The translations under genes were made by a program, and so were the position numbers. A DNA stretch of 64,000 nt, from contig CAZYPW010000001.1 in assembly GCA_964649615.1 (NCBI GenBank), positions 33,557 to 97,556 on the forward strand, in the 5' to 3' direction. Position 1 is the first letter of the stretch, and the number at the start of each line of letters is the position of its first letter. The notes under the pieces are model-generated. The model had not been told where the DNA came from. It did no database searches and saw nothing but the letters and a program-made list of their open reading frames with translations. Below, piece by piece: positions 11,235 through 49,208 of the stretch. Origin of the DNA: an uncultured Gammaproteobacteria bacterium (GTDB lineage Bacteria; Patescibacteriota; Microgenomatia; Daviesbacterales; UBA10151).

Positions 11235-11603
11235 TTAAAGTTTCCTTTTCCCTTTTAAAGTAAGTAAGCTTGCTCCTAAAATATTTGCAAGTTCTTTCGT
11301 TTCTGTTAGTAAAATATTAACTTCGTTTTTATCAGTATTGGTTCCATCTCGTAATATTCCAAGCCAGTACTTAGTTTCATTAGCACTCTTAAGGGCAATA
11401 GCATAAAAATTAATGAAATCTTTCTTGCTTGATGCAGCTTGTGCCTCAATAATATTGGCTCCTATAGAGGTAGCAGCTCTTAATAGCTGATCAGATATTA
11501 CCCAGAAAATTCTTTCATTAGGTAACTTAGTCACAAATTGCACTATCCTAATGGAAAAAGTATATGCCCGGTACTTTAGTTGTTCCTTGTTATTGTTATT
11601 CAC
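11235..11603 (-). CDS. Four-helix-bundle protein (23S rRNA intervening-sequence protein family).
   Basis: YRAYTFSIRIVQFVTKLP...ISDQLLRAATSIGANIIEAQAASSKKDFINFYAIALKSANETKYWL is the characteristic sequence of this family. Confidence 0.7.
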   Translation of the reverse strand: MNNNNKEQLKYRAYTFSIRIVQFVTKLPNERIFWVISDQLLRAATSIGANIIEAQAASSKKDFINFYAIALKSANETKYWLGILRDGTNTDKNEVNILLTETKELANILGASLLTLKGKRKL

Positions 11604-18974: not shown

Positions 18975-19382
18975 GGGGATGTATAGTCTCGACAGGTTAG
19001 CACTTTAAAAACTGCAAGTCGTTAAGGCAAAATTAAACGTTAAATATTTTTGCAAAACACAAACGGCAAGAATATTGCTCGTTCCCTCGCAGGTCAAGTG
19101 CAGGGCCTAATGGCTTTGCGCGGCCAAGGCAGCTTTGCTGCTTTAGCAGCCTAACAGGGTACTTTAGAATATATTCTCTTTCTGGCGGGATACTAAGGTA
19201 AGTACAAAGCCAGGATGCTGTTAATACAATTTTGATCGATCAGTATTAACAAAAGAAAGTTTGGTCATTCAGTAGTTTTCCTGCTAATTGGTTACAACTG
19301 CTGAATAAAAATTAATTAGCTAAACTTGTAGAAGTTTTTAAATTAATAGCTTGCACTCGGCTCACAGCCGACATCTCCACCA
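18975..19382 (+). ncRNA. ssrA: tmRNA (SsrA).
   Basis: 5' GGGGATG pairs with 3' CATCTCC-ACCA to give a 7-bp acceptor stem with the G3:U70 wobble. A TCGAC box follows. An internal ORF ends ...FAALAA-TAA. It lies directly downstream of smpB and is followed by a terminator. Confidence 0.8.
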
Positions 19383-27985: not shown

Positions 27986-28027
27986 TCTTAGACTCTCTAC
28001 TTAAAGTATCAATTTGAATCTATCTTC

Positions 28028-28354
28028 CTAATCTAAAACTACTTCTTTCTCCCCTTTTATATATTGACGAATTAGTAAACTAATCAAGGTTTGGTAAGGG
28101 ACATTGTTTCTGTATGCTTTTGCTTTTAGTCTTATTAAATCTTTCTTTTTAACCCTTAGGGTGATGCTCCGGCTTTCTTCAAGCTCAGGATAATTCTTTA
28201 CAGCTTCATCAAGCATCTTATTAATTTCTCCAGCATTTTTTGCAGGAACATATTCATCTCTCTCAAGAGCTTCTTCAATCTCCTGCTCGTACTTATCTAA
28301 TACGAGATTTTTAAATGGGTCAAATTTTTTAGTTTTGTTCATATTTGTTTTCAT
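28028..28354 (-). CDS. BrnA-type (CopG-like) antitoxin.
   Basis: ITLRVKKKDLIRLKAKAYRNNVPYQTLISLLIRQY. Confidence 0.6.
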   Translation of the reverse strand: MKTNMNKTKKFDPFKNLVLDKYEQEIEEALERDEYVPAKNAGEINKMLDEAVKNYPELEESRSITLRVKKKDLIRLKAKAYRNNVPYQTLISLLIRQYIKGEKEVVLD

Positions 28355-28623
28355 AAATACTTTCTTGTTAATTTTCTACTCGGATAAACTGTTTTCAAAA
28401 AAACTCTTTTTCTTTTTTTATCTATAATGTACGGTGCAACAAAAGCATATCCTCCGATATTTACAACTAAAAGTCTTTGGCCCCTGCGCCCTTTGCTTTT
28501 ATTTTCAAGATCAGTAAGTTTTTTTCCTTTTTTATAAGCCTGGATTACGTCTTGAAAGCTAACACTTCTGGTTTCTTTAAGAATTAAATCTTTTTCTTTA
28601 GAGAAATCAAATTTATGCTTCAC
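28351..28623 (-). CDS. BrnT-type (DUF497) ribonuclease toxin.
   Basis: FDFSKEKDLILKETRSVSFQDV...RLLVVNIGGYAFVAPYIIDKKRKRVFLKTVYPSRK. It overlaps BrnA by 4 nt. Confidence 0.6.
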   Translation of the reverse strand: MKHKFDFSKEKDLILKETRSVSFQDVIQAYKKGKKLTDLENKSKGRRGQRLLVVNIGGYAFVAPYIIDKKRKRVFLKTVYPSRKLTRKYL

Positions 28624-28662
28624 CTATATATTATACTCTTTGTACATACTTTGTCAATACAT

Positions 28663-28740
28663 AAAATGAAGCTAAGTTCGAATAAGCAAATCTTGCGATC
28701 CTTCGGATCTAAAGAACTATCTGGCTCCCCTGAGTTGGAG
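28663..28740. repeat. attL-like direct repeat: a partial copy of the tRNA-Asn 3' end (GGGGAGCCA) plus ~45 nt of its downstream flank, with a 27-nt hairpin insertion.
   Basis: AAAATGAAGCTAAGTTCGAATAAG...AACTATCTGGCTCCC matches 39003-39042. Confidence 0.7.
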
Positions 28741-28834
28741 CGCTTAGGACTAGCACTATTAGAATCAGAGGATGAATTCGAGCCTATCTTTATTTAATGT
28801 ATATTAACCTGGCTAGTACTTTTTATTTATAGGC

Positions 28835-30319
28835 ATGTTATTGTATTATTTGACAAACATGACAACCCAACTCCCTTTAATAGGCCAAAATTATGAGTCT
28901 GAAAATATTGAGAACAAAACTGTCGCTGAAGGTGAGGTACCACAGGATTTATGGGAACCAATATCTGCATTCAGTAATGCTGATGGTGGCCACATACGGC
29001 TAGGGGTTGATGGTAGTGGAAATAGGATTGGCGTTCCTCAGGAAAAAATCGAAAAACTACAAACGGATGTTATTACCTTATGTAGTTCAGGATTTAATCA
29101 TAGATTATACCCGGATTTAACTGTAGATCAGGATAATGTAATAAATGTGTACATTCCTCCCGCACCTGCTTCACTAAGACCAATATATTCAACTAGTCGA
29201 GGCGTTCCAAGAGGTGGTCGGGTTCGTGTTGGCCCTTCAAATGTTCAACTGGATGATGAATGGTTACGTCGTTTTGCTATTCAGGCTAGTGGTGGAGCAG
29301 AGTTACTAGTGTTCCCTGGAGACTATGAACAACATTTGGACACAAGTGCAATAAACAGATATTTAGAAGCTGTGAGAAAAAAGCGAGGGAACGTATATGT
29401 AAACTTATCTATTCAGGAAATTCTTTTAAAACTTAGGGCTATTACACCCGAAGGCATGGTTACTTTATTTGGCTTACTAGCTTTTAGCACACCGACCGCC
29501 TTACAAGAATTAACAGCCCCAACTGTCAATGTTGCAGTTACACAATATGCGGGCACAAATAAAGTAAATCCTAATGATATTGCGGAGGTTAGCTTAGATG
29601 ATAAAGAGTTTTCTGGAAATGTAGTTTCTCAATTTGAGAACGCTTTAAAATTTATATCATCTAAATTACCTACAAGAAGCAGGATAGATCCAGAAGGAAA
29701 AAGACAAGATTACCTTGCTATTCCCACATTAGCTCTTCGTGAAACTCTAGCTAATGCTCTTGTTCACAGAGATTATACTTCTACTGGAGGCAGGGTTCAG
29801 ATCGATTTATATACAGATCGTATTGAGTTTGCTAATCCGGGGAGAAGCTTAATACCCCTTGAGTTACTTGAGACGGCACATCCCCAGACACGTAATCCCC
29901 TCCTTATGAGCTATCTAAGAGATTTAGATATCACTGAACACAGAGGAAGAGGCATTAGAACCATTAAAACCTCGCTTAAATCAGCAGGGCTTGCAGAGCC
30001 AACATTTATCCATAAGCATGATTGGTTTGTGGCAACAATTTTCAGCTCCGCTTTCATTAAAGACGCTGATCAAATATGGTTACAACAATTCCAAGATCAG
30101 AAGTTAAGCGAACATCAATTAAATGCCCTCGTTCATGTTAAACATAACCCAAGTGGAATCAGCAATTCTGAATACAGAAACCTAAACAATATGACAAACG
30201 TCAGAGACGACATCAGGGCTAAAAAGGAATTAGCTAAGTTAACAAAACTTGGGTTATTCAACAAGGTAGGAGAAAATCGTTATCGTCGATACATACTAAA
30301 CCCAGAATTAACAGAATAA
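28835..30319 (+). CDS. Schlafen/AlbA_2 domain plus HATPase_c_4 (RecG-C-terminal-like) putative DNA-binding regulator.
   Basis: N-terminal WEPISAFSNADGGHIRLGV (AlbA_2). C-terminal ETLANALVHRDYTSTGGRVQIDLYTDRIEFANPG (HATPase_c_4-like). Confidence 0.55.
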   Translation: MLLYYLTNMTTQLPLIGQNYESENIENKTVAEGEVPQDLWEPISAFSNADGGHIRLGVDGSGNRIGVPQEKIEKLQTDVITLCSSGFNHRLYPDLTVDQDNVINVYIPPAPASLRPIYSTSRGVPRGGRVRVGPSNVQLDDEWLRRFAIQASGGAELLVFPGDYEQHLDTSAINRYLEAVRKKRGNVYVNLSIQEILLKLRAITPEGMVTLFGLLAFSTPTALQELTAPTVNVAVTQYAGTNKVNPNDIAEVSLDDKEFSGNVVSQFENALKFISSKLPTRSRIDPEGKRQDYLAIPTLALRETLANALVHRDYTSTGGRVQIDLYTDRIEFANPGRSLIPLELLETAHPQTRNPLLMSYLRDLDITEHRGRGIRTIKTSLKSAGLAEPTFIHKHDWFVATIFSSAFIKDADQIWLQQFQDQKLSEHQLNALVHVKHNPSGISNSEYRNLNNMTNVRDDIRAKKELAKLTKLGLFNKVGENRYRRYILNPELTE

Positions 30320-30425
30320 TTCTATCGACCTTTCTATCGACCCCCTCCTTATATGTGAAGAGCCGCCAAATGCGCTACAACGCCTTTTAGCCTTCTATCG
30401 ACCTTTCTATCGACTTTCTATCGAC
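30320..30425. repeat. Five copies of the 10-mer TTCTATCGAC in direct orientation (iteron-like).
   Basis: Copies at 30320, 30332, 30393, 30405 and 30416. Confidence 0.8.
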
Positions 30426-30555
30426 CATATTAACGAAGTTTAAGTGGTTACGGTTCATTACTCATTGCACACCCCAGAGTGTGGTAGGTAGACACCCTCT
30501 TTACAGCAAAAAGTGTTGTAAAAGTTTAATTTTAAGAGTAATATGATAAAAATCA

Positions 30556-30810
30556 ATGAAAAAATTACTTATTAACTTACTTCTTGGAATCTTTGTTTTC
30601 TCTATCCTTACCCCAATCAGCGTGGAGGCTGCTTCCAGAGTTAAAGGTTATACCAAGAAAAACGGCGCTTATGTTGCGCCCCACTACAGAAGCTCCCCTA
30701 ATAAATCAAAATTTGATAACTTCAGTACCAAAGGTAACTATAATCCATATACTGGTAAAAAGGGTACAGTAAATCCTTATAAATTCACACCCAAAAAATA
30801 CAAACGGTAG
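30556..30810 (+). CDS. Small secreted protein (signal peptide; Lys/Tyr/Pro-rich).
   Basis: MKKLLINLLLGIFVFSILTPISVEAAS signal peptide. Confidence 0.4.
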   Translation: MKKLLINLLLGIFVFSILTPISVEAASRVKGYTKKNGAYVAPHYRSSPNKSKFDNFSTKGNYNPYTGKKGTVNPYKFTPKKYKR

Positions 30811-30884
30811 TTGCTCCCCCGCGTGGATAATACACCCTCTGCTTCGCAGAGCCGAACAGCTAGCTTCTTACGAAGCGGCGCAGA

Positions 30885-32456
30885 TCAAACCACAGTTGAG
30901 GAAAAATTTTGACTTTTTGACGCAAGATCAAACGTCAAAATTTGCTCCCTTTGTAGGGAATTACCCGAATGAATAACAGGCTCATTTTTGGAAGGTTTCT
31001 TCAATATATCTTTCACTTCTGGTGATAGAATGGCATTTACAATCTTGCCTTTTTTAACTAAGAATCTTTCCCAGAATAAACCAAGGTAAAATCTTTTAAG
31101 CACTGGTTCTGCGTCCTCATAAGCCTGTCCTATATCTTGAGCTAGAGCTAATAGGCGTTGCACCACCTTTAATGACCTTTCATGGTTAGCTGTAACTTGA
31201 TTGAGTTGGTTTTTAATGCCTTTCAGATCAGCTTCATAACGAGGGTATATTCTTTGAAAACCTTCTGCGCTTAGAGTTTTGTGAATTAACCAGTTGTCCT
31301 CTGCTTCCCTCATAGCTGCCTCAATCTTTGACTGGCGGTTAATAAGAGTTTGAGATTCATTATCACTATTTTGTCTAAAATCTTCCAGGATATGCTTAGC
31401 TCTTTCTACCAGATCCTTAGCATAAGACTCACTAATTTGGATAGCATGAAACCAATCCTGTACTTCCTTCTCAAGGTCAGCTACTGTAACATAACTGCCC
31501 TTGCTACAGGTCTTACAATAATAATGTTCAAATATAAGACCATTCTTTTTAACATGCTTATCAGCCCAAAGCCTCCTATTACAAATAGCACAAAAGACAA
31601 AACCTCTTAAAAGGTAATTATGAACCCTTTGTCTGGAAGCATTTTGATTATGGGCAGTCATTACCTCTTGGCATAAATTAAAGGTTGCTTCATCTATTAG
31701 TGGGACATGCTCACCTCTATAAATTACCCCCTTCCAAGGCACTTTTCCAATATAAAGTGGGTCTCTAAGACAATACGCTAAAAGGCTGACTCCAACCTGA
31801 CCTCCTGTAGTTGATCTTAGCCCTAGTTCATAAAGGTGGTTTGACAATGCTTGTACAGAAAAGTTGCCAGTAGAATAGAGTTTGAAGGCTTGAGTCAAAT
31901 AAGTTCCTTTATCTGGGTCTACGCCAATAATCCTTTGGTCAAACTTGCTGATAGGTTTTTCGTTGAATACATTGATATAACCAATTTTGGGTTTACCAGG
32001 ATAGTAACCAGCCTTAGCTTTTTCCTCCATCACCTTTGATACTTTTCTGCCTGTAATTTGAGATTGGAAAGCATTAACGCCTGCAAGAATCGTATCAATC
32101 AAATTACCTTCTGCACTATCATCAATCATCAATTGGTTTATTGAGATAAGTTGAGTATTAGCCTTTTTCAAAAGAGCCTTAATAGTAAGATGATCTAGGG
32201 TATCACGGGCTAATCTATCCGTATCTAAAACCAAAATATAGTCTACATCGCCATCCTGAACCCTCCCTAGCATGTCTTTTAGACCAGCTCTGTTCATATT
32301 AGTGGCTGACTTACCTTCATCTTTATAAACCCCTATGATGGTCGTATCGTTATCTTCCGCCCATCTTCTGCATCTGTTTATTTGGGTATCAATAGAAAGA
32401 CCCTCTTCGGCCTGCTCATCAGTGGATACTCGTGAGTAAATTAAGGCTTTTTTCAT
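30885..32456 (-). CDS. Large serine recombinase (resolvase catalytic domain, recombinase domain, zinc ribbon).
   Basis: ALIYSRVSTDEQ...YILVLDTDRLARD catalytic domain. C-terminal CAICNRRLW...HYYCKTC. Confidence 0.85.
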   Translation of the reverse strand: MKKALIYSRVSTDEQAEEGLSIDTQINRCRRWAEDNDTTIIGVYKDEGKSATNMNRAGLKDMLGRVQDGDVDYILVLDTDRLARDTLDHLTIKALLKKANTQLISINQLMIDDSAEGNLIDTILAGVNAFQSQITGRKVSKVMEEKAKAGYYPGKPKIGYINVFNEKPISKFDQRIIGVDPDKGTYLTQAFKLYSTGNFSVQALSNHLYELGLRSTTGGQVGVSLLAYCLRDPLYIGKVPWKGVIYRGEHVPLIDEATFNLCQEVMTAHNQNASRQRVHNYLLRGFVFCAICNRRLWADKHVKKNGLIFEHYYCKTCSKGSYVTVADLEKEVQDWFHAIQISESYAKDLVERAKHILEDFRQNSDNESQTLINRQSKIEAAMREAEDNWLIHKTLSAEGFQRIYPRYEADLKGIKNQLNQVTANHERSLKVVQRLLALAQDIGQAYEDAEPVLKRFYLGLFWERFLVKKGKIVNAILSPEVKDILKKPSKNEPVIHSGNSLQREQILTFDLASKSQNFSSTVV

Positions 32457-32632
32457 ATCCCACCTTTCTTTATAAGATCAAGTAGCTGGTTCTCCTCGTA
32501 TCTGCGGTGCTTTCCGCTGCCGATTCTTATTGCTTTCAATCTACCACTTTTGTCCCAACGCCTAAGGGTTAGAGGTGTTACTCCAAGTAGTTGAGCTGCC
32601 TGTTTAATGTTTAAAAGTTTATAATCAGTCAT
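32453..32632 (-). CDS. Small MerR/excisionase-type HTH protein (59 aa), translationally coupled to the recombinase (ATGA overlap). Not in the ORF track.
   Basis: MTDYKLLNIKQAAQLLGVTPLTLRRWDKSGRLKAIRIGSGKHRRY. Confidence 0.55.
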   Translation of the reverse strand: MTDYKLLNIKQAAQLLGVTPLTLRRWDKSGRLKAIRIGSGKHRRYEENQLLDLIKKGGI

Positions 32633-32891
32633 CTTAATCTACCTTAATCAATATTTATCATTGGTGTCAAGATACCAAAGTATCTAACATCAGAGTATTT
32701 AATGTGTTCAAAATGTGTAGTTTGATTCGTCTCATATTTATTCTTATATATTGTCATTTAAATCTTTAACACCAAGGGCGGATGGCGGTAATAATTTACT
32801 TTGTACAAGTAAGATAGTTGCTAATCTTTTAGCAAAAAGGTCTTTCCTACCATGGTCTGGTGTTTTACCAGAAGTTGCAGCAGGAATCCTC

Positions 32892-34085
32892 TTACTTTTC
32901 ATCTTCGGCAACCCCTTCCGCTTTGTCCTCTACTTCCTGATCTATAAGTATATAGAGCTTTTTATTGCCTTGAACTACATAATCTATCTTCCTTAATTCT
33001 AGAAGCTCTCTTGCGGCGTTTTTGACTGTCGTAGACCCATACTTACCAGTTGGTGTTAATTTTTGGATTATTTCTGTTTGGCTCTGAATACCTGATTCTA
33101 AAAGAGATAAGATATCCTCTTTAGCCTGATCAACTTTTTCTACCTCAGACTCAAGGAAATCTAAAAACTTGAAGCCTGTATCGCCATCTGTAAAAGTGGG
33201 AAATTTAACCAAAAAGGATTCTATCGGCTTATCTGATCTTAAAGCGGCCTGGGTGATTTTGAGTGTTAGATCATCTTTTCTTTCAACGATTAAAAGGCAA
33301 TCTAGCATGGCCAAGATGTCACTTGAGCCTCTTAACTTATCTCCAGCTTCCCTCTTAAAAAATCCTTCCTTTCCATGGTGATGAATGAATATTATGCTGA
33401 CACCCAACTCAAGCAATATCTTAAATCTATATTGAACTTCGGCAATTACCTGTGAGCTATTCTCTTCCCCCTTAAAAATGCGTCTAAAACTGTCAACGAT
33501 GATTACCTTTATATTTTTATCTTGAATAATTTTGATAACTTCATTCATAAATCTATCTGTGTCTAGAAATAATTTGGTATCCGTACAGAAATAAATGGGT
33601 AATGTTTGATTATCAGTAAGTAGTTTAATCCTCTCTTGAATCAGTTTTTGAGGGTCTTCTTTACTGATAAACAAAACTGCGCTTTGTTGAGTTTCAAATT
33701 CATCCAAAAACTTTGCTCCTAATGCTAAACAGATCGCCAAATAGAGTGCCCAGAAACTCTTACCAACTTTTGGTTTTCCAGATATACAGGTAATTCCGTT
33801 GTCTGGTACTAAACGATCAACGATCCATTTATTGGGAGGGAAATCTTTTTGCCTAAGTTCCTCTAGAGAAACTACATCCAGGGTGGGAGTATTATTGGTC
33901 AATGGGTCATTACTATATATACTCTGACTTGTTGACTGGGACGGATCAGCTTCAACAGGTAGCTGGGCAGAACCATTTGTTGAATTAGATGTAGGTTGGT
34001 CTTCTTTCTCCTGCTCTGATAAATAGTGACTTAGTTCGTCAATTTCTTTATTACTAAGTTGTTCCTCATCCATATCAGCCTCCAT
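32892..34085 (-). CDS. AAA_25/RecA-like (RepA/DnaB-like) replication ATPase with an acidic N-terminal region.
   Basis: ISGKPKVGKSFWALYLAICLALG...VIIVDSF...SIIFIHHHGKEG. Confidence 0.6.
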   Translation of the reverse strand: MEADMDEEQLSNKEIDELSHYLSEQEKEDQPTSNSTNGSAQLPVEADPSQSTSQSIYSNDPLTNNTPTLDVVSLEELRQKDFPPNKWIVDRLVPDNGITCISGKPKVGKSFWALYLAICLALGAKFLDEFETQQSAVLFISKEDPQKLIQERIKLLTDNQTLPIYFCTDTKLFLDTDRFMNEVIKIIQDKNIKVIIVDSFRRIFKGEENSSQVIAEVQYRFKILLELGVSIIFIHHHGKEGFFKREAGDKLRGSSDILAMLDCLLIVERKDDLTLKITQAALRSDKPIESFLVKFPTFTDGDTGFKFLDFLESEVEKVDQAKEDILSLLESGIQSQTEIIQKLTPTGKYGSTTVKNAARELLELRKIDYVVQGNKKLYILIDQEVEDKAEGVAEDEK

Positions 34086-34317
34086 ATATCCTGCTTTTTA
34101 GAAATCTTTGAGCTTCCCAAAATGAATTAGGTTCAACCTTTAAAGTCCGTTGCCAAAACAGCTCTATAATTTGTTGGAGTTCTTTTGTTTGAGGGAATAT
34201 AAAAATGGATTTACCCTCTGGAGTTTTCTCAATAGAATCAAGTGAAATACCTAAACTAATTAAAGTAGCTGCGACAGGTAACGAAACAGTTTCATAGTAA
34301 GTCTCATTTTTATTCAT
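34075..34317 (-). CDS. Hypothetical small protein.
   Basis: ORF only; overlaps the RepA-like gene start by 11 nt. Confidence 0.3.
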   Translation of the reverse strand: MNKNETYYETVSLPVAATLISLGISLDSIEKTPEGKSIFIFPQTKELQQIIELFWQRTLKVEPNSFWEAQRFLKSRIYGG

Positions 34318-34419
34318 GATCTAATTTTCGATCTTTTAGAGGGGGATGAATATGGAATAATTTTAGATTTTGAGGCTAATTTATAAGCAAAAAGGGGATA
34401 TTAGGGGAAAAGATAATTC

Positions 34420-35253
34420 CTATGTCCTAGTGACTTCACAATCTAACATATAACCACTAGGGGTAGTAGTTATGCTCTCACTCCCAAGTTTACGCTTTAT
34501 TGCCTTAATTGCATCCTTAACTCTATCTTTGGGTGATGAGCTGTCAGCATGTTGTCTTAATGTTTTAAGACAAGCAACAAGCTCTCCTGAAAGATATGGG
34601 GTTTTAGGATTAGCAGCTAGGTGCGTTATTAAATTATATTCAGTTGTATCTCTACGAAATTGGGCTGTTGTCTCTTTGCCCTCCTTTGAAGTAAATCTAA
34701 ACTCCCCTGTACGCAAGTTTATTGTCAATTTGGGAAAATTATTAGATGATGCTTCATTAAACTTTTTAGCTTGTACCCCAGTCTCCTTTATAAATTTTTG
34801 ATCTTCATTCTTAATGGTTAGTCTATAATCTTCACATGCTTCCAAGGCTTTTTTTAAAATGATTACCTCTTGACTTGATAAAGAAACCTTTGGTTCTCCA
34901 TTTTTGATATAAATTTCTTCTACTTGTGAGGCAAATTTCACCACCCTAGGTCTAATATCTTGTTCCCAAACATCACCACTTTCCTCACTAATTGAGCCTT
35001 CTAGGTTCTCTACAGGTCTTAAGTAATCATTAACAAGTTTTATTAATTCAGAATCTTTTGAGAACTCATTCTTTATATACCCTAGTAAGTCCTCTATTAA
35101 AATACATAGGTGTAAATAGCTTTTGTTCAGTATGGGTGAAGCTACAACAATAAACTCTCCTGATTCAAATTGGGTTTTTAGAAGGTAGATCAGTATCTGA
35201 TAGTATTCTTTGAGCCGATATAGAGCATCATCTTTATTCATTTTTATTTTCAT
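34420..35253 (-). CDS. Protein with a C-terminal OmpR/PhoB-type winged-helix DNA-binding domain (no receiver domain).
   Basis: C-terminal ...TEYNLITHLAANPKTPYLSGELV...RVKDAIKAIKRKLG...TTTPSGYMLD. Confidence 0.45.
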   Translation of the reverse strand: MKIKMNKDDALYRLKEYYQILIYLLKTQFESGEFIVVASPILNKSYLHLCILIEDLLGYIKNEFSKDSELIKLVNDYLRPVENLEGSISEESGDVWEQDIRPRVVKFASQVEEIYIKNGEPKVSLSSQEVIILKKALEACEDYRLTIKNEDQKFIKETGVQAKKFNEASSNNFPKLTINLRTGEFRFTSKEGKETTAQFRRDTTEYNLITHLAANPKTPYLSGELVACLKTLRQHADSSSPKDRVKDAIKAIKRKLGSESITTTPSGYMLDCEVTRT

Positions 35254-35529
35254 TCTTATATTTAGGCCTAATTCTACAATAGAATAAAAAATTAGGTTGT
35301 GTAAGCAGAAGTTCTACTATTTTGGCTTATAAATAAGAAAAAAAATAACATTTATATAATAGTTTAGCTATAAATATATGTTTTATTGATACTAAAAATA
35401 TGTACACTTAACATCTTTGATAAGCTCAAAGATATACTTACTTTGTAAACTATTTATGAAAATTCTCACAGTGTAGCAAAGAGTGTTATGGCAACTATTT
35501 CAAGGGTGAATTTCCATCTGTACCACCCC

Positions 35530-35994
35530 CTAAAAGGCGAATCCCAATTGTTCTGATGCCCAAAGAAACCCTAAAATTCCGCCAAAAATTAAAAAGGATA
35601 AAGCCATCTTATCATTACTTCGCAAACCTTCTTTCCCAAAAAATAGTTCCACCACAAATACGGGAACAAGCATTGTAACAACTCCAAACCAAAAAAATAC
35701 AAAAGACAAGACAAAAGCAGCAATATTTCCTATCGGAAAGGTGCTATTAATCAAAGACCTCTCTTCTCGAAAAATGTACCAATTTATTATTATTCCACCC
35801 ACTAAGGCCATAATTAAAGATGCTTTAAAAAGTATTTTTGTAGAATTAAGTTGTTGCTCCTTAATTTTAACTTCTGTCGCTTCACCCACATTATGAGTAT
35901 GCTTAGTAAAATTATCAGTTGTAATTATCCTATTTGCTTTATATCTAAAAGAAGGATTAATGATTCGTTTATTCATATAGATATGTCGTAGCAA
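35530..35994 (-). CDS. Hypothetical membrane protein (3-4 TM helices).
   Basis: Hydrophobic ORF. Confidence 0.4.
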   Translation of the reverse strand: MLRHIYMNKRIINPSFRYKANRIITTDNFTKHTHNVGEATEVKIKEQQLNSTKILFKASLIMALVGGIIINWYIFREERSLINSTFPIGNIAAFVLSFVFFWFGVVTMLVPVFVVELFFGKEGLRSNDKMALSFLIFGGILGFLWASEQLGFAF

Positions 35995-36114
35995 CTACCT
36001 GCCAGTTTATTCTCTGCTAGATTATCTTGATAATATACTCTAAGTCATTCAAAAAGCAAGATATATCTAGTAAAGATTTCTCTAGCAATCTACTAAGTTA
36101 GTAGGTGGATTGCT

Positions 36115-36327
36115 ATGAACTATAATTTTCTTTATAAAAATCTTGCTGGAAATATAGAAAAACTAAGAAAAGAGAAGGGAATGACGCAAGAGAAATTGGC
36201 GGAAAAGGCTGGATTGCATAGAGCCTACTTTTGGGATATTGAAAATGGCAGGAATATATCAATCAAAACTGCTTATAAAATCGCCCATGCTCTCGGAGTA
36301 AAGCTATCAGAGCTGTTTAATTTTTAA
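36115..36327 (+). CDS. XRE-family HTH transcriptional regulator.
   Basis: LRKEKGMTQEKLAEKAGLHRAYFWDIENGRNISIKTAYKIAHALGVKLSELF. Confidence 0.8.
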   Translation: MNYNFLYKNLAGNIEKLRKEKGMTQEKLAEKAGLHRAYFWDIENGRNISIKTAYKIAHALGVKLSELFNF

Positions 36328-36379
36328 CCTTCACCCCCTGCTGGATCGGTAATTTTCTCTCTGTTATACTCGCAGTAAT

Positions 36380-37501
36380 ATGATTAGGAATTTTAAACCT
36401 AATAAAAATCCTCCTCTTTCTGGATTGGATCGTATTAGGGCATATAACCAAAATCAAAAAATTTGGGAATATCTCAAGCGGTATCAAAGTAATAGTTTTG
36501 TTCAGAAAAAGTTGAGGAGAGAGATAACTAGAAATAGAGGACAAATAAATTTAAAAGCAGCCCAAATATCCTCTTTAATGGTTCAGAGCGAAAAATACTA
36601 TGAAGCAGCTGTTAATGCACCTTTAGAAATTAAGCCCCTTATTCTGTATTACGGAATGGTGGGATTGTCCAAATCTCTTATTCTTTCTGGAGATAATACC
36701 TACACTCTATCAGCACTAGCACCTGATAATAGAGATCATTCAACTCATGGATTAAAGTTTGGTACTCAAAACCCCAATGATATATCTATTAGAGATGGAA
36801 AAAGAATATCAAATGAGTTTTGTTATGCAGCAACTTCACCAACAAGAATCGGATTATACAATTTATTAAGAGCTTGTTACTCAAATACTCCTATACCAAA
36901 TGATACTCGTGTTGCTATACAGGACTTACTTTCCCTCGTACCTGAAATTTATAAAGAATATCGTGCTTACTTTAAGCAAAAACCTCGCTCTTGGGGAGCT
37001 GATGCTCATTTTGGGGTAAATAATATTAACGATACAATACAGTTGATAGTATTTGAGGATTGGTACTACCATACTCAACAAATTAACAGAAGAGAAAGAT
37101 ACCCAAATAGTATTCTAAGAAATTTCCCAGAGCTTAGTACGCTTTATACAAGAGAACCAAACTCAGATGATAAGTTCAGACTTAATAATAATGCGGTAAG
37201 CATTGATGACTATATTTATGTTAGTCAGCTTATGACTTTAGAATCTTTTGCACTTAAAAGATTAAATGGTTTTAGTGTGTCAGACATAGATATACACTTT
37301 ATTTTAATGTATATCCTAAGTAATTTAGTACGTTATAGACAAGACAAGTGGTCAAGGCTTATCAGAAGATTAGATAATGATGAAATGTTTTTAATTGAAA
37401 GTTTTATTGAAATATCTTCCGTTAAATTTCCTTATGTAATTTTAAGAGAACTAGATAATATTGATTATGTTTTTACAGGACAGGTTGCTACCTGGAGCTG
37501 A
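36380..37501 (+). CDS. YaaC-like protein (function unknown).
   Basis: The region YYEAAVNAPLEIKPLILYYGMVGLSKSLIL resembles the conserved core of B. subtilis YaaC as I recall it. Confidence 0.5.
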   Translation: MIRNFKPNKNPPLSGLDRIRAYNQNQKIWEYLKRYQSNSFVQKKLRREITRNRGQINLKAAQISSLMVQSEKYYEAAVNAPLEIKPLILYYGMVGLSKSLILSGDNTYTLSALAPDNRDHSTHGLKFGTQNPNDISIRDGKRISNEFCYAATSPTRIGLYNLLRACYSNTPIPNDTRVAIQDLLSLVPEIYKEYRAYFKQKPRSWGADAHFGVNNINDTIQLIVFEDWYYHTQQINRRERYPNSILRNFPELSTLYTREPNSDDKFRLNNNAVSIDDYIYVSQLMTLESFALKRLNGFSVSDIDIHFILMYILSNLVRYRQDKWSRLIRRLDNDEMFLIESFIEISSVKFPYVILRELDNIDYVFTGQVATWS

Positions 37502-37505
37502 TCCG

Positions 37506-38174
37506 ATGAAGGATGAAAATATACTTAGAATTAAATTTAATGGTAGAAGTTTAATTAAGCTGATAAGGTCAGCCAAAGGAAGGGACTTTTTATTATCCAC
37601 ACCTACTATCAAAAATAAGGGGTATTTTGTGAGTAACCATTTTACATTACATACACCAAATAGTAGATTAACCTGGAAAATTACTAAAGTTAAGGAAGGC
37701 GATCAAGACGCTTTAAAATCAATGCTTTATTTAGTAAAAGATCACCCAGTTTATAAAAAGAAGGTAACATACCACGCAGATGGAGTAACTCCAAAAGACT
37801 TAGATATGTATGAGGGAAAAATATTGGACTTGAGTAATCCATCAGAATTTCAATTTGGAACAACTGTAGCTTTAAATATGGAGAATACTTCAATTGATGA
37901 ATACTTTGATCCAGCAAAGACGAAGGATAGAGAGTTTAAGTGGCTCAAAGACATTGTCATACCAAAAGTTTTCAAAGACAAAGTCACAATCAGATGGTTC
38001 ATATCTAAAAACTTTCAAGGGAGGATCACAGAGTTTGTAAAGGGGTATAAAGAACCAATAGATGATTATTTTTTGATTCGGGAACTAAACAGCACAGGGG
38101 AAGAATATACCTTCTTATTTATCATTATCTATGGTTTTCCTGAATTAAAGGATAAGGATAAAAAAACCTATTAG
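37506..38174 (+). CDS. Hypothetical protein, operonic with the YaaC-like gene (4-nt gap).
   Basis: ORF only. The start is assigned to the ATG at 37506 rather than the overlapping upstream start. Confidence 0.4.
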   Translation: MKDENILRIKFNGRSLIKLIRSAKGRDFLLSTPTIKNKGYFVSNHFTLHTPNSRLTWKITKVKEGDQDALKSMLYLVKDHPVYKKKVTYHADGVTPKDLDMYEGKILDLSNPSEFQFGTTVALNMENTSIDEYFDPAKTKDREFKWLKDIVIPKVFKDKVTIRWFISKNFQGRITEFVKGYKEPIDDYFLIRELNSTGEEYTFLFIIIYGFPELKDKDKKTY

Positions 38175-38195
38175 AAAACTTTAACTTGTAAATCT

Positions 38196-38897
38196 TTAGA
38201 CTTTTGTTTTTAGAGAGTTATTGCCTCTGTTATACTTACCCCTCAATACTTGAGCTTTCTCTGGCAAGATATAAGCATTTCGGAGGGTAGTTTCAATAAT
38301 ATCCAGTCCAGTGTTCAGCTCTTCTTCAAGCGGTTCTTGTAATTCATGAGCAGAAGCATTTCCCATATATCTATTAAGATGGAGTAACTCTGCTTCTTGA
38401 TCAGTCATCAAACCCATCTTGGCTAATCCGTCAATTTTTTTCTCAAGGTCACCAGTAATTATACCTTTATCTTTACATATTGCTTCGATAACGGCTCGCA
38501 TACCAATACTTGTAAGTATTGGTAATTTTTTATTAAAGGCCGTGACACACTCTTTGTATATTCTTGCAACAATTTTAGGTATATAGTGATGATCTTCTAT
38601 TGGGGTTTTTGTTTCGTGAGGGGATGGATAAATTGTTGTAACTACATCAAACTCTCCAGTTTGAGGATTATAATCTTCACTAAATACGTATTCTTCTAAA
38701 AGGCAAACCGCCTCACAGCCTTGACATTGGAGCGTATAGAAGGTAGAGACTGTCCACATCCCATCCTCGTTGTCCCAACTATCCTTTTTTTGAACTTTAA
38801 ATAAAATTTTGTGATTGGTGGCTTGCTTGCATATCCTGCAAAAAATCTTTCTCGTTTCTTCTATATTCTTTTTTCGAGTTTTGCTTAGTGGACTCAT
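38196..38897 (-). CDS. DUF4145-domain protein with an N-terminal CxxC...CxxC zinc ribbon.
   Basis: N-terminal CRICKQ...CQGCEA. C-terminal helical domain ending ...NRYMGNASAHEL (DUF4145-like). Confidence 0.5.
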   Translation of the reverse strand: MSPLSKTRKKNIEETRKIFCRICKQATNHKILFKVQKKDSWDNEDGMWTVSTFYTLQCQGCEAVCLLEEYVFSEDYNPQTGEFDVVTTIYPSPHETKTPIEDHHYIPKIVARIYKECVTAFNKKLPILTSIGMRAVIEAICKDKGIITGDLEKKIDGLAKMGLMTDQEAELLHLNRYMGNASAHELQEPLEEELNTGLDIIETTLRNAYILPEKAQVLRGKYNRGNNSLKTKV

Positions 38898-39002
38898 TCA
38901 GCAGATGTTACCACATTTTTAGATTCTAACTTCTTACAAACCCAGCAGGGTCTAAGGTAGAAAGTTTATTATAAAGACTTACTACAACTTGTTCATTTAT
39001 CA

Positions 39003-39042
39003 AAAATGAAGCTAAGTTCGAGTAAGAACTATCTGGCTCCCC
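39003..39042. repeat. attR-like direct repeat overlapping the 3' end of tRNA-Asn.
   Basis: See 28663-28740. Confidence 0.7.
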
Positions 39043-39304
39043 CGCGTGGATTCGAACCACGAACCTTGATCTTACAAGTGCTCCTAATTTACATCAGGAC
39101 TTGGACTATCTCATAACCTTAGCTTTCTTTAGGTTCCGGGCGTATAGTCTCTGAACCTTCCCCGATTTCATCGGGGCTTGGCTGCGGATTATCCTTCGAT
39201 TACACTCAGGACTTCCCGACAATTAACCCAGTTTTTCAACTCCGATTTCTCGGAGAAGCTGCAATATTTTACAGGATCCCGCTCTACCATTGAGCTACAG
39301 GGGA
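39034..39304 (-). tRNA. tRNA-Asn (GUU) interrupted by a 196-nt group I intron in the anticodon loop. Exon 1 is 39271-39304 and exon 2 (with CCA) is 39034-39074.
   Basis: Joined exons: TCCCCTGTAGCTCAATGGTAGAGCGGGATCCTGT|TAAGATCAAGGTTCGTGGTTCGAATCCACGCGGGGGAGCCA. This closely resembles E. coli tRNA-Asn, with anticodon loop CTGTTAA. Confidence 0.75.
39075..39270 (-). other. Group I intron (196 nt, no ORF).
   Basis: The 5' exon ends in U and pairs with the internal guide GCAG, giving a U-G wobble at the splice site. A P2 hairpin CTCCGA-GAAA-TCGGAG is present. Conserved R element GTTCAGAGACTATA and S element GAGATAGTCC form P7. The intron ends in G. Confidence 0.75.
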
Positions 39305-39557
39305 ATATATTAAATTTTTAATGAACCTTTTCCCATGTAGCAACAACCCGCTCTTCCTGGGTGAACTTGAAATTATATTTCTGCTTCGCAGATAAAATGT
39401 TGTTCACCCGCTTAAATGTCATTTAGACATTTAAGCCCATTTCGCTACAGGGGATTGTTAATGTACCTTTGGAATTTTACCATTTTAAAGACTCTAAATC
39501 TATATTTCTGAACCTATATATTCAAACCTGGGTTTTTTAATTCCCAGAACTTCCACT

Positions 39558-49118: not shown

Positions 49119-49189
49119 AGGCCCGTCGTATAATGGTAATACCTGATTCTTATACAATCAAGACGAGGGTTCAATTCCTTCCGGGCCTA
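49119..49189 (+). tRNA. tRNA-Ile (anticodon UAU).
   Basis: Acceptor AGGCCCG/CGGGCCT, D-arm GTAT-AATGGTA-ATAC, anticodon stem TGATT/AATCA with loop CTTATAC, T-loop TTCAATT. Confidence 0.65.
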
Positions 49190-49208
49190 CATAATTCTGG
49201 TCCGCCCA

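Follow-up and report, generated by a model that had tools for sequence, protein, structure and literature searches.

The window analysed here is a stretch of 64,000 nucleotides from contig CAZYPW010000001.1; this study concerns the interval at 28663–39304, in which a large serine recombinase (LSR) gene and several further units lie behind the 3' end of a tRNA-Asn gene. Read away from the tRNA gene and on the minus strand throughout, the interval consists of an intact LSR integrative element of 8,092 bp (E1, 30944–39035), delimited by homology breakpoints at both ends and by Pfam content; a 115-nt remnant with a 16-nt core (X, 30813–30943), recognised by core match and arm homology; a 2.1-kb segment without recombinase (E2, 28724–30812), characterised by Pfam matches and ending in the decayed core TCCAACTCAGGGGAGC; and the putative fossil P' arm of E0, an older element of the E1 type (28663–28723), recognised by alignment to the P' arm of E1. 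P' denotes the tRNA-proximal arm of E1 and P the arm at the LSR 3' end. Approximately 90 loci were compared in total (62 from species-representative genomes, 18 from metagenomes, several by exact look-up) and are designated by L and a number where they have to be told apart.

The integration target is a tRNA-Asn(GUU) gene on the minus strand (39034–39304), detected by ARAGORN with the intron option; default ARAGORN returned no tRNA near 39 kb. The gene is interrupted by a group I intron of 196 nt (~39082–39280, minus strand; Rfam RF00028, 92 bits), inserted in the anticodon loop after position 35 and before position 36; U is the last base of the 5' exon and G that of the intron (ARAGORN: cctgt, then the intron ending in g, then taaga). 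The window gene thus carries its intron at the U35/U36 position, recently described and experimentally validated for tRNA-Asn of Patescibacteria (PMC13011429). The mis-annotation problem treated in that paper was also met at L092 (14889–15157), L043 (11491–11798) and L073 (7572–7847). The T-arm and the acceptor 3' strand of the tRNA gene make up its B arm; the final two bases of CCA (39035–39034) are supplied by E1. At the other end of the gene, the first ~20 nt (GCTACAGGGGA...) together with the 5' flank, which is kept in L009 and L073, are duplicated at 39437–39482, and an insert of ~130 nt (region 39305–39482) parts this duplicate from the true 5' end at 39304.

The recombinase gene of E1 (30885–32456, minus strand) encodes a protein of 523 aa with Resolvase, Recombinase and Zn_ribbon_recom domains: the resolvase domain covers residues 4–151 (PF00239, E=1e-30), the Recombinase domain scores 32.7 bits (PF07508, cut-off 21.1), the zinc ribbon 22 bits, just below its cut-off (PF13408, 25.3), and the A118 integrase C-terminal domain aligns with residues 229–408. 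In the catalytic motif YSRVSTDEQ, residues R9, V10, S11 and T12 are nearly invariant across 32 homologues. The best NCBIfam match is CcrB, at 133 bits against an equivalog cut-off of 900; identity is ~27% to staphylococcal recombinases and below 25% to any INPHARED phage integrase. No relative was found among IMG/VR viral contigs, and the phage and plasmid collections held only relatives of less than 28% identity. The start of the gene is overlapped by 4 nt by the stop of a helix-turn-helix (HTH) gene (32453–32632, minus strand; 59 aa; Pfam HTH_17, MerR), whose product belongs to the HTH_17/MerR excisionase family (TIGR01764 'excise', 34.7 bits, cut-off 28.8). An HTH gene stands upstream of the LSR gene in 38 tblastn matches across the loci, and its product is a candidate recombination directionality factor (RDF). 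An earlier sequence-only reading of the interval, made by a model without database searches, had named an LSR with a coupled Xis-like HTH gene, a RepA-like AAA_25 ATPase and an XRE regulator; all three are borne out, the latter two by an AAA_25 gene at 32892–34085 and an XRE gene at 36115–36327.

On the tRNA side the junction of E1 reads GGGGGAGC followed by CA; the far junction directly follows AAAGGGAGC and lies inside the 3' coding end of the LSR gene. The P' arm (38958–39035, minus strand; CAGATAGTTCTTACTCGAACTTAGCTTCATTTTTG...) carries the motif TTACTCGAAC, which begins 10 nt past the core. The sequence TTACNCGRAC occurs at the same spacing in six other junctions, the P' arm lying 10 nt from the core in seven overall; behind a tRNA core this 10-nt spacing was read in the window, L073, L006, L009 and L011. 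The arm and ~50 nt beyond it are kept in L073, after the same intron-bearing tRNA-Asn, and in L004, after unrelated non-tRNA DNA, and in both loci the homology begins at the core.

The P arm with its core AAAAATGAGCCTGTTATTCATTCGGGTAATTCCCTACAAAGGGAGC (30944–30990, minus strand) lies inside the LSR 3' coding end, the junction falling after 30944. In at least eight relatives whose LSR is 70–93% identical to that of the window at the amino acid level (L003, L072, L073, L084, L086, L004, L007, L075) homology is continuous to ...CCTACAAAGGGAGC and gone at the next base after GGGAGC, and the sequences that follow are mutually unrelated; a second subgroup (L008, L074, L081) loses homology in the same way, its members sharing no more than AAG past this point. 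Next after the core of L072 comes CGAATACTTCTTACTCGGAC... at the 10-nt spacing; this is the reverse-complemented 3' end (the P' arm) of a second LSR gene, which is convergent. L003 carries beyond its core DNA that is homologous to the stretch directly behind the tRNA-Asn core of L011, with an identical spacing of 30 nt. These breakpoints and spacings mark GGGAGC as a site-specific junction and not as a mere gene end. The hexamer is all that E1 has in common with its tRNA-Asn target (6 bp), so there is no conflict with serine-recombinase chemistry, and the crossover is bracketed no finer than this shared sequence. In L072 (1–3300) the two LSR genes, 85% and 70% DNA-identical to that of the window, are arranged tail to tail, with 26 nt and only one core between their 3' ends, as two stacked elements of opposite polarity or as one attP with two recombinases.

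The last 18–19 codons of the window LSR (30943–30885) are encoded beyond the recombination junction, by X. The junction falls within a codon near the C-terminus; tails of relatives comprise 0 to ~30 residues, each different after GGGAGC, and the integrated-state tail in the window reads ...REQILTFDLASKSQNFSSTVV. Integration would fuse the LSR frame to downstream DNA, so that the C-terminal tail would differ between the integrated and the excised state; in the excised form the frame would run into the P' arm, and any regulatory role of such a tail switch is conjecture.

When the two ends of E1 are joined, the reconstructed attP carries CAAAAATGA and TTCGrGTAA in both arms, in inverted orientation; the symmetry proposed for this site would rest on these two short shared blocks. 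By manual count from the TTCG motifs, the distance from the core is 5 nt greater for the LSR-side P arm than for the B arm of the tRNA gene, the P' spacing being constant. A118-type integrases are known for an offset between the half-sites of attP and attB. By analogy with that system, the P/B offset would fit a crossover in GGGAGC at the end of the acceptor stem. The idea that E1 is a canonical element inserted backwards via a palindromic GC was rejected on the distance from TTCGGGTAA to GC, which is 15 nt on the LSR side vs 10 nt.

Directly behind E1, the 115-nt remnant X ends in a GAA-loop hairpin, GGTGTATT and a 16-nt tRNA-identical core, ATCCACGCGGGGGAGC (30828–30813). An 18-mer probe made of this core and CA matches there with 1 mismatch, compared with 0.00 matches expected by chance, and the hairpin arm has homologues in the arm at the far end of the L009 element and at the distal core of L073. 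The interval thus contains a displaced copy of the tRNA 3' end; this site and the junction in the LSR 3' end at 30944 are two att-type sites missing from the sequence-only reading. A different delimitation has E1 and X as one element bounded by the 16-nt tRNA-identical repeat (39051–39036 and 30828–30813), GGGAGC being just the end of conserved coding sequence and the rest variable cargo. In its favour, no other exact tRNA-derived repeat of the region is as good, repeats of this kind (17–18 nt) delimit the elements in L009 and L006, the hairpin arm has its homologue at the far end of L009, and L073 too has a distal 13-nt core behind its LSR gene. An LSR element ending at the 16-nt distal core was indeed the first idea, demoted after the spacings in L072, L003 and L011 were seen. 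Between LSR and distal core, however, the window (115 nt) and L073 (620 nt) have segments unrelated to each other despite 84% DNA identity of the LSR genes; moreover, in L072 and L003 the DNA after GGGAGC opens with the proximal end of another element at tRNA-core spacing, as expected of a junction and not of cargo. A combined E1–X element is, on balance, unlikely; with E1 ending at GGGAGC, as preferred here, X would be the remnant of a recombinase-less or canonical-type element, to judge from its core and hairpin arm.

The direct repeat that had first drawn attention to the interval is real: ~10 nt of the tRNA-Asn 3' end and ~35 nt of flank recur 10.3 kb away. It consists of two blocks of 24 nt in the same order and orientation (28663–28686 and 39003–39026, 96% identical; 28712–28735 and 39024–39047, 92% identical), and the 18-mer GGGAGCCAGATAGTTCTT, which spans tRNA end and flank, has exactly 2 occurrences, against 0.08 by chance. 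In pairwise alignment the left copy holds a 28-nt insert that is absent from the right copy and falls inside the conserved TTACTCGAAC motif. This insert (28687–28714), which splits the fossil P' arm, contains the hairpin GATCCGAAGGATC and has CTT at either border. The left copy (28740–28663) otherwise consists of the decayed core (28724–28740), then CA, then the split P' arm; an equivalent junction of tRNA-like core, CA and P' arm is found in L003, 2.8 kb behind the LSR gene. Such a junction arises on integration of an element with a tRNA-like core ahead of an older one. Alignment of these parts suggests that the left copy is a fossil junction between the E2-side core and E0, an older and decayed E1-type element. 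The 45-nt repeat, as its sequence context indicates, is the P' recombinase-binding arm of two successive related elements, E1 and E0, each beside a core, and not the duplication made by one integration as had been assumed. Read in this way, the repeat is no argument against serine-recombinase chemistry. The objection that an LSR leaves only a 2-bp core, and that long repeats are hence unexpected, is too strict here, relatives having tRNA-identical cores of 13–19 bp.

Two other accounts of the repeat were weighed. The whole 10.3 kb could be a single mobile unit that moved through its long repeats, by a lost tyrosine integrase or by an LSR with unusually long att identity; the repeats are direct, flank the interval, and each opens with the tRNA-like GGGGAGCCA. 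Among the open reading frames (ORFs) of the interval there is no match to a tyrosine recombinase, and of those with at least 70 aa scanned in 28.6–39.3 kb none matches Phage_integrase; a lost tyrosine mechanism or a new att architecture, as the sequence-only reading had offered, is not needed. The left copy is split within the TTACTCGAAC motif by its insert, two more att-type junctions lie inside the interval, and the repeated sequence is an element arm kept in other hosts, in L004 beside non-tRNA DNA. The stretch 30944–28724 is without counterpart in the loci fetched through the recombinase, and its Schlafen module occurs in L092, L093 and L094. A single unit is accordingly quite improbable. 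What stands of the earlier description is an LSR integrative element at the tRNA-Asn 3' end with an att-related repeat; its extent does not, as E1 ends at 39035 and 30944 and the other 2.3 kb would be older. Alternatively, the left copy might be a degraded second tRNA-Asn, or a segmental duplication unrelated to site-specific recombination. The ~16–18 nt left of the repeat (TCCAACTCAGGGGAGCCA) do resemble a tRNA 3' end; at 28.6–28.8 kb, however, no tRNA-like signal appeared even at permissive Rfam thresholds, and the similarity spans only core and element arm, as for a junction of tandem elements and likewise in L003. We regard this as very improbable, and as the least probable account of all.

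The material between X and the fossil arm, E2, comprises an 84-aa secreted-type ORF (30556–30810, plus strand), a Schlafen-like AlbA_2/HATPase_c_4 gene (28835–30319, plus strand; Pfam) and, directly 3' of the latter, an array of five exact copies of TTCTATCGAC with the conserved core CTATCGAC (30320–30425, plus strand); the window has no further exact copy of TTCTATCGAC beyond these five. The Schlafen-like gene is widespread in the Candidate Phyla Radiation (CPR), at 60–84% aa identity, and is kept together with the iterons in other contexts in L092 (iterons 11456–11551) and L094 (10275–10297); the module also recurs in L093. The CTATCGAC cores occur in pairs 3' of the Schlafen-like gene in three CPR genomes and are conserved above the surrounding non-coding DNA. 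The five iterons had been counted correctly; they belong with the Schlafen-like gene, which they accompany in L092 and L094, and not with the RepA-like gene. Judged from this linkage, the TTCTATCGAC array may be a candidate binding or operator array of the Schlafen-like protein. Two Logan assemblies of the same species from two samples, L090 and L091 (28692/28701–30543), both stop at 30543, upstream of the 84-aa ORF; the shared stop hints at a population variant or a branch in the assembly graph.

The wider comparison places the window LSR in a family abundant in CPR/Patescibacteria. Of 45 loci examined, 25 have a tRNA gene no more than ~200 nt from the LSR 3' end, in every case on the opposite strand (convergent); the isotypes are Asn (12), His (9), Leu (2), Lys (1) and one called Thr. 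The last has an intron and is probably a mis-called Asn (cf. PMC13011429). In 12 Asn loci the LSR ORF extends 14–131 nt into the antisense strand of the tRNA gene. Where the far end fell within the fetched DNA, perfect tRNA-derived direct repeats bound the elements (L006, 18 nt; L009, 17 nt; L024 and L029, 19 nt), and across relatives the tRNA-identical cores measure 13–19 bp. From the convergent tRNA genes, the ORF overlap and the tRNA-derived repeats together it follows, at the level of sequence comparison, that the family integrates at tRNA 3' ends, with a core that overlaps the last codons of the recombinase itself. The subgroup of the window LSR (L003, L072, L073, L084 and L086 at 92–93% aa identity; L004, L007, L008, L074 and L075 at 70–74%) has genes that end ...TTCGGGTAATTCCCTACAAAGGGAGC and are codirectional with the tRNA gene. 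A minimal unit of 2.4 kb is found at tRNA-Asn in L073 (7846–10250), with P' arm, HTH_17, LSR and P arm only, followed by 620 nt and then the 13-nt tRNA-identical core. DNA identity between the window and L073 is 83.9% for HTH plus LSR and 74.5% for the neighbouring dnaG–rpoD, which suggests horizontal movement, with transfer after divergence of the hosts. Recombinase-less cassettes occupy the same core sites as LSR elements (L011, ~10185 downward; L003, 8651–11443; L086, 386 onward). Their proximal end (...GTATCRAAGGGTTTTA...) is conserved, and distally they close with a hairpin and a tRNA-like core; they are candidate satellites that would rely on an LSR in trans. No description of tRNA-targeting serine integrases of CPR bacteria was found in the searchable literature.

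The interval is best explained as a tandem array built at the tRNA-Asn 3' end by site-specific integration through a serine recombinase, to which we assign a probability of about 0.75. In the proposed mechanism, E1 would be the newest, tRNA-proximal unit, and its LSR would recombine attP with attB, the HTH protein presumably aiding excision. The attP would be an imperfect inverted repeat with the LSR 3' end as left arm P and CAGATAGTTCTTACTCGAAC... as right arm P'; attB would comprise the tRNA-Asn T-arm with the 3' end of the acceptor, the crossover dinucleotide lying within GGGAGC. As the element supplies the last CA of CCA, the tRNA would be left intact by integration. Each arrival would insert at the tRNA gene and displace older units distally, which would give the present order with X (115 nt and a 16-nt core), E2 (2.1 kb, without recombinase) and the fossil P' arm of E0 as successively more distant units; E1, complete in genes and arms, may be mobile today.

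Several observations weigh against this explanation. Neither an empty site nor a circular junction nor a population variant turned up. The global-alignment score of the attP arm symmetry is not above that of shuffled controls. Right of the E1 junction the loci differ in sequence, and no clear second (B') half-site was found there; an LSR attB would normally be expected to look otherwise, and hybrid or pseudo sites may have served for some insertions. No P' arm can be recognised in X, and E2 has ends that suit neither type of arm well, so that both are putative former elements. The Schlafen and iteron module of E2 also occurs in L092 between RpoD and an apparently unoccupied tRNA-Asn, so that E2 could be old island or host DNA and not an element.

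As to the genomic context, many loci, L073 and L009 among them, have tRNA-Asn directly after rpoD and pointing the same way. The window has its block of tRNA gene and array (~27986–39557) in the reverse orientation compared with these loci, at 11 kb from rpoD, and a search for inverted repeats at the block borders gave none. The rpoD genes of L009 and the window share 77.6% DNA identity, which would place the host among CPR bacteria near Daviesbacteria. L092 has the orientation of the window, and its tRNA-Asn has an apparently unoccupied flank (GGGGGAGC followed by AATTAG) in a distant host. The uninterrupted BrnT-to-tRNA-Asn site that had been predicted for related genomes was not found, relatives having RpoD beside tRNA-Asn; exact-protein look-ups for BrnT and RpoD gave nothing on record, and BrnT itself has no family match, the product labelled BrnA matching CopG_antitoxin only below the cut-off. 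For the 423-aa gene beside the tRNA gene and its homologues of 60–68% identity, the contigs obtained were all short or out of synteny; they carry glycosyltransferase clusters, with neither a tRNA gene nor an empty site. Logan contigs of the same species, found through the Schlafen gene, are identical fragments that end in the repeat and at 30543, with no alternative junction, and a search for circular contigs by terminal overlaps among the fetched loci found none.

From the tRNA gene outward, E1 is ordered as P' arm, cargo (DUF4145, 237-aa ORF, YaaC-like, XRE, 154-aa ORF, 277-aa ORF), backbone (DUF5659, AAA_25, HTH_17, LSR) and P arm. Pfam matches identify DUF4145 (38196–38897) and YaaC-like (36380–37501) in the cargo and DUF5659 (34075–34317) in the backbone; the 277-aa ORF lies at 34420–35253. 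The XRE regulator is listed with the cargo, and the set XRE/DUF5659/AAA_25/HTH_17/LSR recurs in other loci. Two earlier labels were not confirmed: the 277-aa product, taken for an OmpR-type winged-helix protein, has no Pfam match even at E=10, and the cargo called defence-like yields only weak PADLOC matches, solely of the Schlafen-like protein. Elsewhere in the window lie a tRNA-Ile with anticodon TAT, an unusual bacterial isoacceptor (49119–49190), a tmRNA (18975–19382) and a cobalamin riboswitch (867–1043).

A long att-like repeat can thus be the repeated arm of stacked elements, without any new mechanism, and the array accounts for the recurrent variable island beside rpoD and tRNA-Asn in these genomes. 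The E1 family offers directly testable att sites and a natural recombinase with an integration-dependent C-terminus; the window and ~60 relatives give clean, comparable junctions for serine integrases at tRNA-Asn, -His, -Lys and -Leu in ultra-small CPR genomes. A broader generalisation is put forward tentatively, as a possibility with clearly less than even odds: that a widespread CPR lineage of LSRs is specialised on tRNA 3' ends (Asn, His, Lys, Leu) with the core in the last codons of the recombinase, that the tail swap may act as a sensor of the integration state, and that satellites exploit the cores to give arrays at tRNA genes like those of the staphylococcal cassette chromosome (SCC). 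The lineage would then come in two gene-order polarities, with the LSR gene on the P' arm and convergent with the tRNA gene, or on the P arm and codirectional, as in the window; if true, the tail swap could bias directionality or stability.

Among known systems, SCCmec of Staphylococcus with its Ccr recombinases is similar in that an LSR inserts an element other than a phage into the 3' end of a housekeeping gene that is conserved and stays active, with short direct repeats at the junctions. SCC composite islands arise by successive insertions at the same site, recombinase-less cassettes included. The window resembles them in its composite array with a recombinase-less unit and in CcrB being the best NCBIfam match of its LSR; it differs in the tRNA target instead of rlmH, one recombinase gene instead of ccrA/ccrB, a core inside the recombinase gene and a CPR host. 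With CcrB at 133 of the 900 bits set for the equivalog and tRNA-Asn as target, the array falls outside SCC proper, as defined by a CcrA, CcrB or CcrC equivalog and the rlmH target. Phage LSRs (A118/LI, TP901-1, Bxb1, phiC31) share the Resolvase/Recombinase/Zn-ribbon architecture, and the imperfect dyad symmetry known of their short att sites may have a counterpart in the inverted blocks of the attP proposed for E1. A small protein of its own for directionality is likewise expected; E1 is distinguished by the lack of phage structural genes, the tRNA target and an excisionase-type HTH partner, which is not a typical LSR RDF. In the mycobacteriophages BPs and Brujita, which use a tyrosine integrase, attP lies inside the repressor gene and integration alters the C-terminus of the protein. 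E1 likewise has its crossover in the 3' end of a coding gene; unlike in these phages that gene is the recombinase itself, and a regulatory effect is conjecture. Tyrosine-integrase islands at tRNA genes (P4-like, Islander-type) have in common with the array the integration at a tRNA 3' end, the regenerated gene, the displaced 3' fragment and the tandem arrangement; they differ in recombinase class, the interval having no Phage_integrase gene at either end, and in the identity with the tRNA gene, which is only 6 bp for E1 (13–19-nt blocks in relatives). By the textbook view, tRNA genes are targets of tyrosine integrases, and serine integrases are valued tools for genome engineering. According to a 2020 survey (PMC7192596), no serine integrase had yet been reported to use a t(m)RNA gene; such use, seen in 14 of 297 computational cases, still needed proof. 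The noteworthy part of the present findings is the systematic use of tRNA genes by this LSR family, which is unusual for the enzyme class.

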